From: Thermoproteota archaeon
GTDB lineage: Archaea; Korarchaeota; Korarchaeia; Korarchaeales; Korarchaeaceae
Direction: 5' to 3'
Assembly (NCBI GenBank): GCA_026986575.1
Contig: JALSOH010000006.1
Span: forward strand, 192,001-256,000
Length of the DNA stretch: 64,000 bases
This document shows positions 30,417 to 35,634 of the stretch, one piece after another (position 1 is the stretch's first letter; each line of letters opens with the position of its first letter). The notes beneath the pieces are model-generated. The model was not told where the DNA came from. It was given only the letters and a program-made list of their open reading frames with translations, and ran no database searches. A program made the position numbers and the translations under genes.

Positions 30417-30523
30417 CTGTGATACCTGCCTACTGTAACGCCCAATTCTCCTCATATTCTAATGGTCTATCGGTCTCTTCTGATCGGCTTTTCCCTTAAT
30501 ACCCATTATTCAACCTCAGCAAT
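30417..30523. repeat. Diverged ~100-bp direct repeat, copy B
   Basis: Homologous to 29457-29554; abuts the vapC stop codon. Confidence 0.7.
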
Positions 30524-30933
30524 CAGTGAGATAACTCCTCAAACTCGCTTAGCAATTCCTCGCCCCTCTCAATCATCTCGATGATCTCCTGATCTGTTGT
30601 GACGGGCTTGGCCCCCCTAACTAGGCACTGGGCGGCTATGAGGGAGTCGAAGTAGTCGAGTCCCTTGGATGAAAGGAACGCCCCCAACGCAATATCTAAG
30701 GGGGAGAGAGGCTCGAGGGATCTGTCTATAACACTATTCAACAGGTGCCACACCTTGATCCTCTGATCCATGGTAAACCCCCTGCTCTTCATGAGCAAAT
30801 CGAGCTCCAAGAGGGAAGCCTGAGAGACTTTCCTGTCCTCACCGAGTTCCTCTATCATCTCAACGGAATGAGGGTGAAGCGGATCGGAGGGTCGAAGGTA
30901 GGCAATGAGGTAAACTGTGTCAATGATCTCCAC
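30523..30933 (-). CDS. vapC: PIN-domain toxin
   Basis: IIDTVYL, SLLEL, DYFDSLIAA and TTD. Confidence 0.88.
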   Translation of the reverse strand: MEIIDTVYLIAYLRPSDPLHPHSVEMIEELGEDRKVSQASLLELDLLMKSRGFTMDQRIKVWHLLNSVIDRSLEPLSPLDIALGAFLSSKGLDYFDSLIAAQCLVRGAKPVTTDQEIIEMIERGEELLSEFEELSH

Positions 30934-31183
30934 TTAGCATCATCTCCAACATCTTGGAGGCCTCGTGATCCTCCTCCTTCCAGCCCTTGAACTTCTCATC
31001 GAAGATCTTAGAGACTTCCTCATACAGCTTGTCTAAAACTATGATTTCAGCTGAGCTATCACTGGTCACTTTCAGAAGGACTCTGCTCCCCTTCTTGATG
31101 TCCAGTTTGCGCCTTACCTCGGCGGGCAGGACCATTCTCCCACGATCATCAATAATTACCACATAACTCAAATTTCCCACCAC
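30920..31183 (-). CDS. vapB: AbrB/MazE-family antitoxin
   Basis: IDDRGRMVLPAEVRRKLDIKKG. Confidence 0.88.
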   Translation of the reverse strand: MVGNLSYVVIIDDRGRMVLPAEVRRKLDIKKGSRVLLKVTSDSSAEIIVLDKLYEEVSKIFDEKFKGWKEEDHEASKMLEMMLSGDH

Positions 31184-31267: not shown

Positions 31268-31792
31268 ATGGGGAGATCCGAGGAGGTGGGTGAACTGTAC
31301 CTCCCATGGAGCCGGGTCTCCGACTTCACATGTTATGCCTGCGGCCTCTGTTGCTACCGCTTCCGCATCCCCTTGAAGCCCCATGAAGCTATATCCATAG
31401 CTCGCACCTTCGGTCCCCAATATATAGAGTCCATCGCTGGAAAACAGTATATAAGGAAGAGGGAAGGAGAGGCCTGCCCATTTCTCATCGAGGATAATGG
31501 AGTGGGTCTATGCTATCTTCAAAGCTTGGGGATGAAGCCCTCGGCGTGTAAGATATGGCCCTTCAAGATATACAGGAATCCAGAACATGGAAGAGGTGAG
31601 GAGGCCTATTACTCTCATAAACTGGGCGAATTCTACGTTTACGTCGATCAGAGGTGCCCAGGGATCAAGCTAGGCAGACCCACACCTCGCCTCGTGAAAG
31701 CCGTGGAGGAGGCCATAGAGGTCTGGATCGGCGCCAGGAGGGATCAACTATACACTACGGCCCCCCTCTCTTCTTTAATCAAAAAGTTTTAA
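31268..31792 (+). CDS. YkgJ-family cysteine-cluster protein
   Basis: CxxCGxCC, CPFL, C and KPSACKIWPF. Confidence 0.85.
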   Translation: MGRSEEVGELYLPWSRVSDFTCYACGLCCYRFRIPLKPHEAISIARTFGPQYIESIAGKQYIRKREGEACPFLIEDNGVGLCYLQSLGMKPSACKIWPFKIYRNPEHGRGEEAYYSHKLGEFYVYVDQRCPGIKLGRPTPRLVKAVEEAIEVWIGARRDQLYTTAPLSSLIKKF

Positions 31793-31834
31793 CAGGTTTG
31801 TGAAAATATGATACGGAAGGTTTATTAGTTACTG

Positions 31835-32008
31835 CCGGTAAGTAACCCTTGCCGGGAAAGGGGAGGAGTAGGCGGTCGGGGTTAGCCTTGACCGCTGAAA
31901 TTCCGGTCGCCTCGAGAGGGGCGATCGGAGGTAACCCGGTCGGGAGGCCGGGGATCCCCCCCGAAAGCAATTTTCTGCAAGGCTCGCCTACTAACCATAG
32001 CCCTTTTC
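31835..32008 (+). ncRNA. Putative structured non-coding RNA of unknown family
   Basis: Seven complementary segments, two GNRA-capped hairpins with G-U pairs that favour the + strand, and TATA-like boxes upstream. Confidence 0.65.
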
Positions 32009-32096
32009 ATGTTATCCCCTACAATTGCTGAGTCCGTGGGACCTCGGTGATGTTTCGATCCGTCATACAAAATCGTTTTATAATGTATTTCACTGT

Positions 32097-32324
32097 GTGA
32101 TACTGACGAGTTCGGTAGTCACGGTCCGAGTTCCGAAAGAGCTGAAAGAGAAAATGAAGAAGCTAAAAGTTAACTGGAGCAAAGAAATAAGGAAATGCAT
32201 AGAAGAGAAGGTCAAAGACTACGAACTGCTGGAGACCATAGATAGAGTTAGGAAGGAGGCCCGAAAGAGAAAGGTAAAGACGGATTCGGCTCAACTCATT
32301 GGAGAGGACAGGGAGAGCAGATGA
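32097..32324 (+). CDS. vapB: RHH/CopG-type antitoxin; start codon uncertain
   Basis: VVTVRVPKELKEKM...VNWSKEIR. GTG at 32097 is possible; the expected Met position (32106) reads ACG. Confidence 0.7.
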   Translation: MILTSSVVTVRVPKELKEKMKKLKVNWSKEIRKCIEEKVKDYELLETIDRVRKEARKRKVKTDSAQLIGEDRESR

Positions 32325-32743
32325 AGGTTCTGAATGCATCATTTCTCGTCAAGCTAGTGCTGGATGGGGAAGGATCTGAGGAGGCCGAGAGATCCATCAA
32401 GGACTGGATATCAGGCGGTGAAAGGGTATGTACCGTCGATCTCGTGATACCAGAGTCCACTAACGCCATATGGAGGCAAAACGTTCTGGGGGAACTCGAT
32501 AGAGTGGAGTGCTAGGAGGCCGCTGAGGATTTGCTAAGCTTAGTGAGTAGGATGGAAGTGCACCAAGTGGGTGAACTGATCATGGAGGCCCAGGATATAG
32601 CGATGAGGTACGGGATCGCCGTGTATGATTCTCTTTACTTGGCTCTAGCCATCAGGAGGGGAGCGGATCTTGCTACATTCGATCGAAAGCTGAGGGATGT
32701 GGCCTCGAAAATCGGGGTGAAGACGTTCCCCATAACGGACTAG
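32321..32743 (+). pseudogene. vapC: PIN-domain toxin interrupted by an in-frame TAG
   Basis: ORFs 32321-32515 and 32531-32743 share one frame. TAG at 32513-32515, and the first catalytic Asp is replaced (VLNAS). YDSLYLALA and ATFD are retained. Confidence 0.85.
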
Positions 32744-32829: not shown

Positions 32830-33459
32830 CTAGATGTACTTGAATAGGTTGAGGTAGGCCTCGGTGCTGAGCTCTATCACCCTGCCTTCGTCCACGTAGG
32901 TCACAAGGATCCCATTAAGCTTGGCCTTCCTCAGTAGCTCCATGGGTATGGGTGGATTTCGATAATACCTGTCCAGCAACTCCTTCCACTTCCTCAGCTC
33001 TATATCCGACCTTGCATGGGGCGGGGTGAGGAGGAAAGGAGGTATCTCCATTAGGTAGGTGGGGGGTGCCGCTAAATAGAATCTATCCGCGTACTGGCTA
33101 TACCTAGCGATCTTGCTGGCTATCCTCGCCCTGCAGAAACTGTCGGGATCCAAGGCATGGTCCGGAGGCACGAAGCCAGTTTCCACCTCTACTATCACCT
33201 TTCCCCCGTTCGTGCCCATTACATCGCATCTGAGGTCGTCCACTTTAACCTCTACATCCACCTGATATCCCTTTATGATCAGGTGAGCCGCTATCACCAG
33301 CTCCATGGCCGAATGATTTATCTTCACGGCCCCAGCTATGTAAAGCTCCGTCAGCCTGTCGATGAGCGGTCTCAGCCTGCCAGCCGGTGGACCCCCTCTC
33401 CCCTCTATCCTCTTGGCCAGCTCCTCTAGGTCGGACCTGAATCTCCGGGTATCCGGCAC
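32830..33459 (-). CDS. Conserved archaeal hypothetical protein with a PD-(D/E)XK-like motif
   Basis: VDVE....CDV......IVEVETG pattern. Confidence 0.65.
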   Translation of the reverse strand: MPDTRRFRSDLEELAKRIEGRGGPPAGRLRPLIDRLTELYIAGAVKINHSAMELVIAAHLIIKGYQVDVEVKVDDLRCDVMGTNGGKVIVEVETGFVPPDHALDPDSFCRARIASKIARYSQYADRFYLAAPPTYLMEIPPFLLTPPHARSDIELRKWKELLDRYYRNPPIPMELLRKAKLNGILVTYVDEGRVIELSTEAYLNLFKYI

Positions 33460-33645
33460 CTGTGATCGACCTCTAAATAGGTATTAAGGCAGCGCGATGA
33501 CACTTTTTAATAAATCAATGACTATCCACTGGCAGGTGATTTCATTGAATGTGATGCAAACCGTTCTCTAAACAAAGAAATTATTTAGGATGCTTCCCAG
33601 AGTGAGGATGAAAATAGAACAAGAAAGCAGGGAGGTCTAAAGGTA

Positions 33646-35634
33646 ATGGCCCATAATGAAGCTCAAGGTGAGGAGAAATGCCTTAGTCTTGTACTGATCA
33701 AAGATATATTGTCGTTGAAAGAAGGCATTTCAAGGGCATTATTTGGAATAGTTGCCATCTATTACGCAAAAGTTTACTTTGAACTCTTAAAGAAAATTGT
33801 TCAAAATGGAATAAGTTTAGATATTATTTCTAAGATAATTATGGAGGTAAGAAATTTAATTTTAATAGTTGTATCAATTATATTTTTAACAGTTTTAATA
33901 AGATGTTTTATGATAAAGATAATAAGAAAGAACTTCATCTACAGAGCGGTAGTAGCAATTTATTTACATTTTTATTATGATTTTAAAATTAAATTATTGA
34001 GTTACCTTATAAACAAAATAAATACTCTAAGTAATGATGTAAGACAGTCTCAGTGGGAATCATTAAGATATTTGAAGATGTTTGTACTAACTTTGCTTGC
34101 GAGATTGATAGGACTTGGCGAATCCGAATTTATTAGAGAAGCTGCTATCTACATAGAAGAAACTAAAAAATTTAAAGAGAAATATTCATCTAATGTAAAA
34201 AAATATCTTCCTACAGTGCCTATGTCGTCAGAAGCCGTGGGAAAACCACTGCTAGTAAAAACTAATCACTTAAAGTATGGCTTCTACTGGAAGCCTTTTG
34301 ATTATACAATTTCACTTCTTTATGATGGGGCTCAACTTTTAAATATGATAAGTAATAAGGATAAGGAGAGAAGAAGAATAATATTAGAAGTGAATTTGTG
34401 TCAAGAAAAGAACGGACTTTTATCAATTTATAATAACGCAGGTAAGGTATTTATTTACGAACATTATGTTAAAAGATGTCTTGAATCGAGGGACTGTAAG
34501 AAAAAATTGGAGAGGCTAGCCAGTGAAATACATAACAGGATCAGAAAACCAATAACGTGGAAAGGAATTTATAAATTCCCTAAGGAATCACTCCCACTTC
34601 CTCTAAGATGGGCTTCAGGAGGAGTACTTCCCATAGCTTATTATAAAGAAAATTTTTGGTTTGTTCTCTTCTACCGGAACTTCTCCCCAATGTGCTGGAA
34701 TTTACCGTTGGGGGCATCAGAGACATTCAGTGAGCAGGAGAAGGTGGATATCATGTCTACCCGTGAAAGTATGGAGGAGATTTTACTAGTAGACAATGAG
34801 CCAGACAGGGGAAGTACACTTACACTAAAACCTATTTTCCCCCGAACGTCTCTGGAATTTAGATACATAAATGAATATATATGGCCAAAAGTTTATTCAT
34901 ATTTAAAAGAATATGCTAAACTCAGGCACCAACAAGACGGTTTTTCTATAAAGATACCTGAGGATCTCGGAGGGATATCAACTCCTGCTGGGGAGATATC
35001 CACTCCATATGATGTCAAAATTAAGTACAGATCCAAAAAAGAATCAATGATCCAAAATGTTTTATTTATAATAAATCCTGAGGAATTAGGAATAGAAATT
35101 ATACGACCCTTTATTTTCCTTATGAACGATGAGGACTATATACTTTGGGGGGAGATATGGAAGGGCGCATCAGCTATACCTAGAACTCCCGTACTACTTC
35201 TATCAGTTGATTATGTGCAAAATATCATCAAAAAGGGGGGAAAGTTTGGTGATAAATTGAAAGGTAACTATAAGAGATGCTCAGGATGTAGGTCGATTAT
35301 TAAAATTCCTAAGGAAAAATATGTATTATTCTACAAGGACATTCTCTTTGCCAAAGAGAGATTAGAGAACCTGAAGAGGCTGCCTAATCCGTCTTACAAA
35401 GAAAAACTTGAGATAAAAAGCCTTCGATGGCATAGTAGTTACTCAAAACAAATAGATTCGCTAATAAATTCAGCTAGAAAAGGCGGAGACCTAACTCTTA
35501 GAGAACATAGTATATTCATGAATTTCTGCCCGACTACTTGGAGATCTTTTGAAATACTTTACACTATCGAACGTTTAGATAAAAACTTTTTAGATAACAT
35601 GCTGAAAATCTGGTTTCTTGAGCGATTTCATTAA
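33646..35634 (+). CDS. AT-rich, horizontally acquired hypothetical protein: N-terminal hydrophobic helices plus a Nudix-like region
   Basis: Long intact ORF in strongly AT-rich DNA; WNLPLGASE...RESMEE resembles a degenerate Nudix box. Confidence 0.7.
   Translation: MAHNEAQGEEKCLSLVLIKDILSLKEGISRALFGIVAIYYAKVYFELLKKIVQNGISLDIISKIIMEVRNLILIVVSIIFLTVLIRCFMIKIIRKNFIYRAVVAIYLHFYYDFKIKLLSYLINKINTLSNDVRQSQWESLRYLKMFVLTLLARLIGLGESEFIREAAIYIEETKKFKEKYSSNVKKYLPTVPMSSEAVGKPLLVKTNHLKYGFYWKPFDYTISLLYDGAQLLNMISNKDKERRRIILEVNLCQEKNGLLSIYNNAGKVFIYEHYVKRCLESRDCKKKLERLASEIHNRIRKPITWKGIYKFPKESLPLPLRWASGGVLPIAYYKENFWFVLFYRNFSPMCWNLPLGASETFSEQEKVDIMSTRESMEEILLVDNEPDRGSTLTLKPIFPRTSLEFRYINEYIWPKVYSYLKEYAKLRHQQDGFSIKIPEDLGGISTPAGEISTPYDVKIKYRSKKESMIQNVLFIINPEELGIEIIRPFIFLMNDEDYILWGEIWKGASAIPRTPVLLLSVDYVQNIIKKGGKFGDKLKGNYKRCSGCRSIIKIPKEKYVLFYKDILFAKERLENLKRLPNPSYKEKLEIKSLRWHSSYSKQIDSLINSARKGGDLTLREHSIFMNFCPTTWRSFEILYTIERLDKNFLDNMLKIWFLERFH

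Follow-up and report, generated by a model that had tools for sequence, protein, structure and literature searches.

Introduction

To our knowledge, apart from the universal RNAs and the modification guides, uncultured archaea have so far yielded few structured non-coding RNAs. Box C/D small RNAs (sRNAs) carry a C box (RUGAUGA) and a D box (CUGA), and box H/ACA sRNAs have a hairpin with a pseudouridylation pocket, plus an ACA box close to the 3′ end. L7Ae is the general binder of kink-turns (K-turns) in archaea, and non-standard K-turns with an A·A pair also occur. The four-way-junction form of the twister-sister ribozyme has a terminal stem, an internal loop, a second stem and a hairpin-bearing junction, while type III toxin-antitoxin RNAs such as ToxI are RNA partners of nucleases or toxins. 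Comparative genomics has also yielded orphan structured RNA motifs, for example those of Weinberg et al. 2010 (PMC2864571), which combine conserved sequence with covarying helices, lie between genes, have no assigned function and are restricted to particular lineages. Here we describe a small structured RNA gene on the forward strand of a 64,000-nucleotide stretch of a Thermoproteota archaeon genome (assembly GCA_026986575.1, contig JALSOH010000006.1, positions 192,001 to 256,000; hereafter the window, whose own numbering is used throughout).

The RNA is like those orphan motifs in each of these respects. It differs from them in being archaeal, in having a promoter of its own with a transcription factor B recognition element (BRE) and a TATA box, in occurring in two sizes within one genus, and in matching nothing in Rfam 15. 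The accessible portions of the full-text literature on YkgJ, archaeal structured RNAs and Korarchaeota non-coding RNAs hold no description of it. The family is apparently undescribed and, as a kind, is one more orphan structured small RNA. We consider it very probable that the conserved structured element is real, and on balance we favour an independently transcribed, trans-acting, protein-bound RNA of an undescribed family apparently confined to one genus.

A single-copy RNA gene with a conserved promoter

A GC-rich stretch between a 174-amino-acid (aa) open reading frame (ORF) for a YkgJ-like protein (31268-31792, + strand) and an antitoxin/PIN gene pair holds a single-copy structured-RNA gene, about 125 nt long in the long form found here. 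It scores 144.7 bits with our long-form model R1 and gives the single match in its own 1.91-Mb genome. One hot-vent archaeal genus carries the RNA in 17 of its 21 species genomes, nine with the long form (the window's included) and eight with a short form; these 17 and four metagenome contigs make up the 21 members of the family. Genomes are cited by our own numbers (G008 and so on) where they must be told apart. The gene and its borders are:

31815..31828, + strand: promoter, a BRE-like purine-rich GGAAGG (31815-31820) followed by a TATA-like TTTATTAG (31821-31828)
31849..31975, + strand: RNA gene, long form, a block kept in eight other genomes
31971..31974, + strand: oligo-T run, at which transcription probably ends; in the long forms the conserved block gives way to T-rich stretches

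The octamer (T/C)TTATTA(G/A), with a purine-rich hexamer before it, stands 23-26 nt upstream of an invariant CGGGA in 21 of 21 members, and the spacer between octamer and CGGGA varies in sequence. A TATA-like box noted earlier at 31821-31827, one letter shorter than our reading, therefore has an equivalent in every member. Archaeal transcription starts about 24-27 nt downstream of a BRE/TATA element. Because the promoter is conserved at a fixed distance, we place the probable start of the RNA at its terminal stem, P0, with a 5′ end at about 31849-31851. Oligo-T runs are terminators of archaeal transcription, and the 3′ end would lie at the T-run.

Set side by side, the long forms are conserved from GGAAGG-TTTATTAG (31815-31828) to CCCCCCGAAAG and the T-rich run (31971-31974), and diverge beyond. 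As conservation stops at the T-run, the family unit is about 31849-31975 and not the 174 nt (31835-32008) that an earlier note on this DNA, made from the letters alone, had delimited. The first hairpin of that note (31835-31855) belongs to the spacer between promoter and start, and nothing equivalent to it occurs in G008, G013, G019 and G003; the note's second TATA-like box (31786-31792) runs into the stop codon that ends the upstream ORF (31268-31792). Its description of a free-standing structured RNA holds: there is a conserved promoter-like element proper to the gene, and no sense gene follows downstream in the ancestral layout. ORFs of 60-63 aa overlap the RNA gene on both strands (for example + 31849-32031, 60 aa).

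Structure of the long form

The core (31849-31975) has a minimum free energy (MFE) of -72.7 kcal/mol, with a z-score of -4.68 on the + strand (0 of 200 shuffles as good) versus only -2.29 on the - strand, in agreement with the + strand reading proposed earlier. A 186-nt stretch around it (31830-32015) reaches -91.1 kcal/mol, with z -4.37 on the + strand (again 0 of 200 shuffles as good) and -1.48 on the - strand. In the long form a purine-rich internal loop separates a terminal stem, P0, from a G/C stem, P1, which leads into a four-way junction bearing the hairpins P2 to P4. Its parts are:

31849..31852, + strand: P0 5′ strand UUGC, pairing with GCAA at 31967-31970 in the MFE folds
31853..31859, + strand: internal loop 5′ strand CGGGAAA; CGGGA(A/G/T)A in the 17 genomes and four metagenome contigs
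31860..31867, + strand: P1 5′ strand GGGGAGGA, pairing with 31955-31962 with one A·C mismatch (RNAalifold)
31871..31896, + strand: P2, an 11-bp hairpin with loop UUAG, the best-supported helix
31901..31930, + strand: P3, a 13-bp hairpin with loop GAGA; a GNRA loop is kept
31935..31952, + strand: P4, a 7-bp hairpin with loop GGGA; a hairpin stands here in each of nine MFE folds
31955..31962, + strand: P1 3′ strand UCCCCCCC, in which C-run length tracks G-run length
31963..31970, + strand: internal loop 3′ strand GAAA (31963-31966) and P0 3′ strand GCAA (31967-31970)

Helices were taken from RNAalifold and from a structure written by hand, whose pairs were counted on a MAFFT alignment (nine sequences, 38 pairs), and the two agree. 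Pairing is kept in 90.6% of 341 cells, compared with 36.5-58.4% when the partners are slid. Covariation, named beforehand as a check, is present: 10 of the 38 pairs have changed on both sides, in 20 cells. Among 500 shuffles none reached the observed paired share or covariation score, and three reached the pair count. When the sequences of both forms were folded separately, 14 of 17 gave the common P0/P1 and three-hairpin build; G003 and G014 gave it in part and G004 folded differently.

P2 is paired in 100% of cells across the nine sequences, with four of its 11 pairs changed on both sides and five on one. The hairpin GCGGTC/GACCGC, once read as a mutually exclusive switch, is this conserved helix. 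A pseudoknot proposed between TCGGGG and CCCCGA is not supported by the comparison, as two of its six pairs are unpaired in four of the nine sequences, where P2 keeps pairing (G·U to A-U). The P3 loop is GAGA, GGGA or GAAA in all nine long forms and the lower stem has four pairs with compensatory change, so the GAGA-capped hairpin of the earlier note stands, at 12-13 bp (31901-31930). So does its 7-bp hairpin capped by GGGA (31935-31952), in which pairing is kept in 9/9; the loop is GNRA in six of nine long forms and YAAUG-like in three. MAFFT mis-registers parts of P3 and P4, and the P4 pair share on that alignment is lower (67-89%) because of these register shifts.

P1 is paired in 95.2% of cells in the nine long forms, and an A-U pair has turned to U-A in G008. 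Its two strands covary in length, GGGG going with seven C and, in G013, G019 and G003, GGG with six C. The closing stem may also be read in a second register (CGGG/CCCG plus GGGGA/UCCCC), and the run lengths change together under either. On the 3′ side of the internal loop, CCCCGAAA is kept in all members. Overall, the helices vary in a compensatory way, and the internal loop and part of the apical sequences stay the same. The RNA has also taken indels (1 nt in G009, 4 + 3 nt in G008) and is kept across divergence of the neighbouring YkgJ-like protein down to 51-56% identity. In the long form P2 is flanked by AGUAG and GAAAU, which are loosely reminiscent of a bulged-G motif of the sarcin-ricin type; both are missing in the short form.

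A short form in eight genomes

Reading downstream of the YkgJ homologues in 10 genomes that had no BLAST match revealed a short form of about 95 nt in eight of them (G001, G004, G006, G012, G014, G015, G016 and G017). Its promoter and its CGGGAGAGGGGG...CCCCCGAAAG frame are those of the long form; its three hairpins are shorter, and its P0 is a 5-bp GGGGC/GCCCC stem that is 97.5% paired. Pairing over the whole short form is 84.6%, versus 35-55% with partners slid. The short-form model R2 recovers all eight, and R1 detects seven at E 2.7e-4 to 0.054, with G004 at E 0.34 (57.6-kb filter-free search). GNRA tetraloops (GCGA, GCAA) were read in two of the eight and GCAG in a third. When the two forms were aligned together through R1, the arms came out too poorly for use, and the forms were analysed separately. 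The size variants indicate that arm lengths and the AGUAG/GAAAU junction strands are dispensable and that the P0-loop-P1 module is not.

A lineage-specific complementary segment

Beyond the T-run, the window contains a further segment able to pair with the RNA:

31978..32008, + strand: lineage-specific segment complementary to 31856-31890, carrying the 3′ strands of the long-range helices, downstream of the T-run

The three long-range helices described in the earlier note are perfect in the window (8/8, 8/8 and 7/7 pairs), but they are not a feature of the family. Two persist in G011, where one of them shows a compensatory C>T/G>A change, and G009 and G020 have only G·U-rich remnants (6-7 of 7-8 pairs). 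In G005, G008, G013, G019 and G003 matching bases are scattered at best, and the helices are absent in all eight short forms. The segment and the antitoxin/PIN cassette occur in the same four genomes (G000, G011, G009 and G020), and the helices may be a young add-on of the cassette lineage or a relic of the cassette insertion.

Distribution and copy number

BLAST over 41 related genomes gave clear matches in the same genus only, at 92-93% identity in G011, G009, G020 and G005 and 72-74% in G008, G013, G019 and G003. R1 matched nine of 43 genomes of the Genome Taxonomy Database (GTDB) phylum, all within the genus, and R2 eight of 40 genomes of the class, again within the genus only; both searches scored a subset of first-look candidates, and weak members may be missed. 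R1 gave one match per positive genome, plus a weak extra in G011 (E 0.076). A dispersed element, and in particular the pattern of a miniature inverted-repeat transposable element (MITE) raised earlier, was rejected, as there is one copy per genome and the flanks are syntenic. The four metagenome contigs carry the same neighbours as the genus genomes. Viral contigs gave 7 + 2 pattern matches at eight distinct loci; seven were folded and none folds like the family, and the eighth (L106), which shares its match position with L102, was left out of folding.

Several other matches were dismissed as chance. Two lie in G015, one within coding sequence (C1:787123; R1, E 0.0105) and one inside an ORF of >1000 aa (C2:586387; R2, E 0.007), and one in G023 is coding (L011; BLAST E 0.002). 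The remaining BLAST rows with E >0.05 are matches of 15-22 nt. A stretch 3′ of the YkgJ homologue in G021, a genome of another genus (L098:2112-2228), is a weak candidate that could be a distant or decayed relative. It has the exact CGGGAGAGGGGG motif and its 3′ partner CCCCUGAAGA (R2, E 0.049). The interior has a different fold, and the whole stretch may be part of an extended ORF. Nothing family-like was found downstream of the YkgJ homologue in G022, G024 and G025.

Comparison with known RNAs

None of the 4227 Rfam 15 models matched at gathering scores anywhere in the 64-kb window, which agrees with the earlier failure to assign the element to a known family. E-value mode on the element gave chance matches only (E 0.77-8.9), the best being Termite-leu (16.4 bits; threshold 51), and a short-form locus and a distant long-form locus gave best E-values of 3.6-9.6. 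The genome has its own RNaseP_arch (179.1 bits, C4:159381-159668), Archaea_SRP (signal recognition particle; 162.5 bits, C6:41755-42069) and 5S (83.8 bits, C4:368290-368411) elsewhere, so the window RNA is not its copy of these. ARAGORN found no tRNA genes in the window, and the arms of the RNA are 7-13 bp with 4-nt loops. For box C/D, no UGAUGA is present in 31849-31975 and a lone CUGA stands at the 3′ foot of P2; for box H/ACA, P2 to P4 are uninterrupted helices and the RNA 3′ end is GAAAGCAAUUUU.

A riboswitch or other cis-regulatory leader is improbable, as the ancestral downstream gene, p209, lies on the opposite strand and the RNA is intact despite insertion of the cassette between them. 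The RNA resembles the four-way-junction twister-sister ribozyme in its stem-loop-stem-junction order, and a hairpin loop could dock on the internal loop. The likeness is one of architecture only, and the window RNA has no Rfam ribozyme match up to E 10.

Neighbouring genes

The gene order YkgJ (+), RNA (+), p209 (-) holds in every RNA-positive genome (17). The flanking genes in the window are:

31268..31792, + strand: upstream neighbour, a CxxCxxCC (YkgJ-like) protein of 174 aa; PF03692, E 7.8e-06, 26.9 bits (cut-off 23)
32830..33459, - strand: convergent neighbour p209, 209 aa, with a PD-(D/E)xK-like predicted fold; AlphaFold2 pLDDT (predicted local distance difference test) 90.6

The earlier note had suggested the YkgJ protein as a possible partner of the RNA. 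The gene is syntenic in 17 of 17 RNA-positive genomes; homologues are also present in 19 of the 21 genus genomes, the RNA-less G002 and G007 among them, and in four of five genomes tried from other genera. At 22 distant YkgJ loci (35-42% identity, mostly Bathyarchaeia/Bathyarchaeota) no RNA look-alike was seen downstream by eye. YkgJ homologues are thus widespread without the RNA, and it is the set of genomes with intact p209 that coincides with the RNA-positive set. In one of the Bathyarchaeia metagenome-assembled genomes (MAGs; L067), a tRNA-like gene that appears to contain an insert was seen by eye about 240-390 nt 3′ of the YkgJ homologue.

p209 has no Pfam family, and its Atlas clusters are annotated only as 'hypothetical protein'. 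Its best Foldseek matches, every one of them weak, have the restriction-endonuclease fold (E 9e-4 at best, TM-score (template modelling) 0.25-0.35), and its weak structural look-alikes include SfsA, NucS/EndoMS, XisH and Bax1. Uninterrupted p209 is found in exactly the 17 RNA-positive genomes, the copies in G008 and G004 being cut by contig ends. In G007 the RNA gene and its promoter are gone and the two stop codons at the locus lie about 25 nt apart; YkgJ is intact, and p209 (C128:4408-5033; loci L174, L211 and L212) is frameshifted near residue 110 with an in-frame TAG; this break may be a MAG assembly error. Neither single-protein nor profile searches found p209 in the RNA-less G002 (99% complete), G010 (94%) and G018 (70%). 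Two genomes of genus g7 (G027 and G028) bear p209 and lack the RNA, no motif having been found in the p209 flanks.

A cassette of about 0.8 kb with an antitoxin and a PIN gene separates the RNA from p209 only in G000, G011, G009 and G020 (window 32097-32743; loci L003-L005 versus L006), and the RNA is intact in all four. The RNA gene and p209 lie tail to tail in G005 and all other genomes without the cassette. Gaps from RNA to p209 are 57-180 nt in long-form genomes, and in short-form genomes the RNA as modelled reaches the p209 stop or runs 0-4 nt into it (for example G012, 148620-148720 versus 148720-149340). Within the cassette, the PIN (VapC-like) gene (32321-32743, +), which follows a ribbon-helix-helix antitoxin gene, is split by a stop into ORFs 32321-32515 and 32531-32743. 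PF01850 matches its second half only, and the orthologue in G011 and G020 is an intact 140-aa ORF. Another toxin-antitoxin pair, a MazE/AbrB-type (PF04014) and a PIN (PF01850) gene, lies just upstream of YkgJ (30523-31183, -). Beyond p209, GC content falls to 0.21-0.39 over 33450-35634, which includes a Lys/Ile/Asn-rich ORF of 662 aa (33646-35634) and may be a foreign island.

Discussion

Because sequence varies in the helices and is fixed in the internal loop and in parts of the apical regions, a folded, protein-bound role in trans is the most likely one for this RNA; long antisense pairing, or a leader role for the downstream gene, is probably not what it does. Under this account, transcription would start about 24 nt downstream of the BRE/TATA element and end at the oligo-T run. 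The 5′ and 3′ ends of the RNA pair as P0, an invariant asymmetric purine-rich loop (5′ CGGGARA / 3′ GAAA) links P0 to P1, and P1 closes the four-way junction, as covariation and separate folds show. The folded RNA would then act in trans bound to protein, which would probably recognise it mainly through the internal loop, and the GNRA loop that caps P3 may help to compact it.

K-turn RNAs bound by L7Ae (box C/D, H/ACA, archaeal RNase P) invite comparison with this loop. As in these, an asymmetric loop with three extra 5′ nucleotides is followed by purine oppositions of the G·A type: in the secondary structure, CGG+GARA on the 5′ strand faces GAAA between P0 and P1, which supplies the three-nucleotide bulge. 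The window RNA departs from them in its second pair, which is A·A, and in having no C/D boxes, ACA box or pseudouridylation pocket. In a standard K-turn the bulge adjoins sheared pairs in tandem (PMC10573300), first G·A and then A·G. Here the first opposition can be G·A, and the second places A opposite A in all members; given this A·A pair, we do not file the internal loop as a K-turn.

The departure from the K-turn rule is one of several points that weigh against the account we favour; L7Ae binding to the internal loop would accordingly be a guess. The tested structure was derived from the same sequences on which it was counted, and the relatives are not independent. In the short form covariation is weak, with three pairs changed on both sides and 34-175 of 500 shuffles equalling it; P0 and P1 are nearly invariant there, so that conservation and folding carry all of their support. 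Among the runs listed for 31600-32200 none is of RNA; the 10 listed are DNA contigs, one of which may come from the source sample, and transcription and both RNA ends are accordingly read from sequence. The range is narrow: R1 matched none of 22 genomes from nine other genera of the same GTDB phylum, and R2 none of 19 genomes from six other genera of the class. An exact-pattern scan of metagenomes, which covered the short-form spacing only, gave 47 matches; the four genuine ones (102.6-112.1 bits) are all nearly identical to short forms already in the set. The joint loss of RNA and p209 may be decay of one neighbourhood, and G018, one of the genomes concerned, is 70% complete. Of 301 genomes sampled from another archaeal class, 150 also carry a p209 homologue in single copy; no R2 match lies beside 29 of these homologues, and the flanks of 30 showed no look-alike by eye.

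Other explanations share some of this evidence. One would take the transcript to be about 174 nt (31835-32008), closed by the three long-range helices, with a pseudoknot and switching through the GCGGTC/GACCGC hairpin. Those helices are perfect in the window, where the MFE fold of 31830-32015 uses them; two persist in G011, one by compensatory change, and with only four T in the T-run read-through is conceivable. Their 3′ strands, however, lie past the end of family conservation and are degenerate, unrecognisable or absent in relatives, the supposed alternative hairpin is the most strongly covarying helix, and two pseudoknot pairs are broken in four of nine sequences. The extended transcript is therefore improbable, and its helices are at best an add-on in the lineage of the window and G011. 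We also regard as unlikely a cis element of the convergent gene pair, that is, a structured 3′ end or insulator, or a read-through antisense to the p209 3′ end that tunes p209. It would account for the constant position between YkgJ and p209, for the co-occurrence with intact p209 and for the contact of the short-form end with the p209 stop. It would not explain a dedicated promoter at a fixed distance in 21/21 members, an RNA unchanged in the four genomes with 0.8 kb of cassette before p209, or long-form gaps of 57-180 nt, and a mere insulator needs no covarying four-way junction or invariant internal loop.

A ligand-binding (riboswitch-like) or self-cleaving RNA would fit the terminal stem, internal loop and multi-hairpin junction with a dockable GNRA loop (P3, 9/9 long forms), and the constancy of the internal loop and of the junction purines next to helices that drift. 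Set against these are the missing Rfam riboswitch or ribozyme match even at E 10, the lack of a sense-oriented downstream gene in the ancestral layout and of any sequence sign of a cleavage site or ligand, and a resemblance that is one of architecture only; the odds on such an RNA seem slim. Finally, the locus might be without RNA function: a GC-rich relic, the end of a mobile element, or a short ORF such as the 60-aa one at + 31849-32031. The ORFs overlapping the RNA on both strands, the narrow distribution and the loss without obvious consequence in G007 speak for it; against it are the single syntenic copy, the compensatory helix changes, indels in G009 and G008 that would break any reading frame, the conserved promoter and retention of the RNA down to 51-56% YkgJ identity. 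The covariation counts have already largely refuted this reading, which we consider highly improbable.

We return to the preferred reading of a trans-acting, protein-bound RNA and ask which protein it might bind. Co-occurrence points to p209, and not YkgJ, as the most plausible functional partner. One tentative proposal, to which we give a low probability, is that the RNA is a dedicated subunit or regulator of p209 (a cofactor, a guide-like specificity element or an inhibitor) in a two-part RNA-protein nuclease module. As in ToxI-type systems, a small structured RNA gene adjoins a nuclease-fold gene, and genomes in which the protein gene is disrupted or absent lack the RNA. Unlike them, the pair is convergent and not tandem, the RNA is a single unit and not a set of tandem repeats, and p209 is vertically inherited, widespread without this RNA and not known to be toxic. 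Since its homologues so often stand without the RNA, p209 does not generally need it.

The weight of these findings is limited by the one-genus range and by a role deduced from sequence. Within that range the family can be defined by its promoter, its terminator-like end, a four-way junction supported by covariation and two natural sizes, which is enough for a covariance model. p209 is an uncharacterised conserved family worth study of its own, and its link to the RNA gives a concrete hypothesis for two orphans, an RNA and a nuclease-fold protein. If that hypothesis is true, the RNA-p209 module would have arisen within one archaeal genus, atop a protein that is widespread without the RNA.

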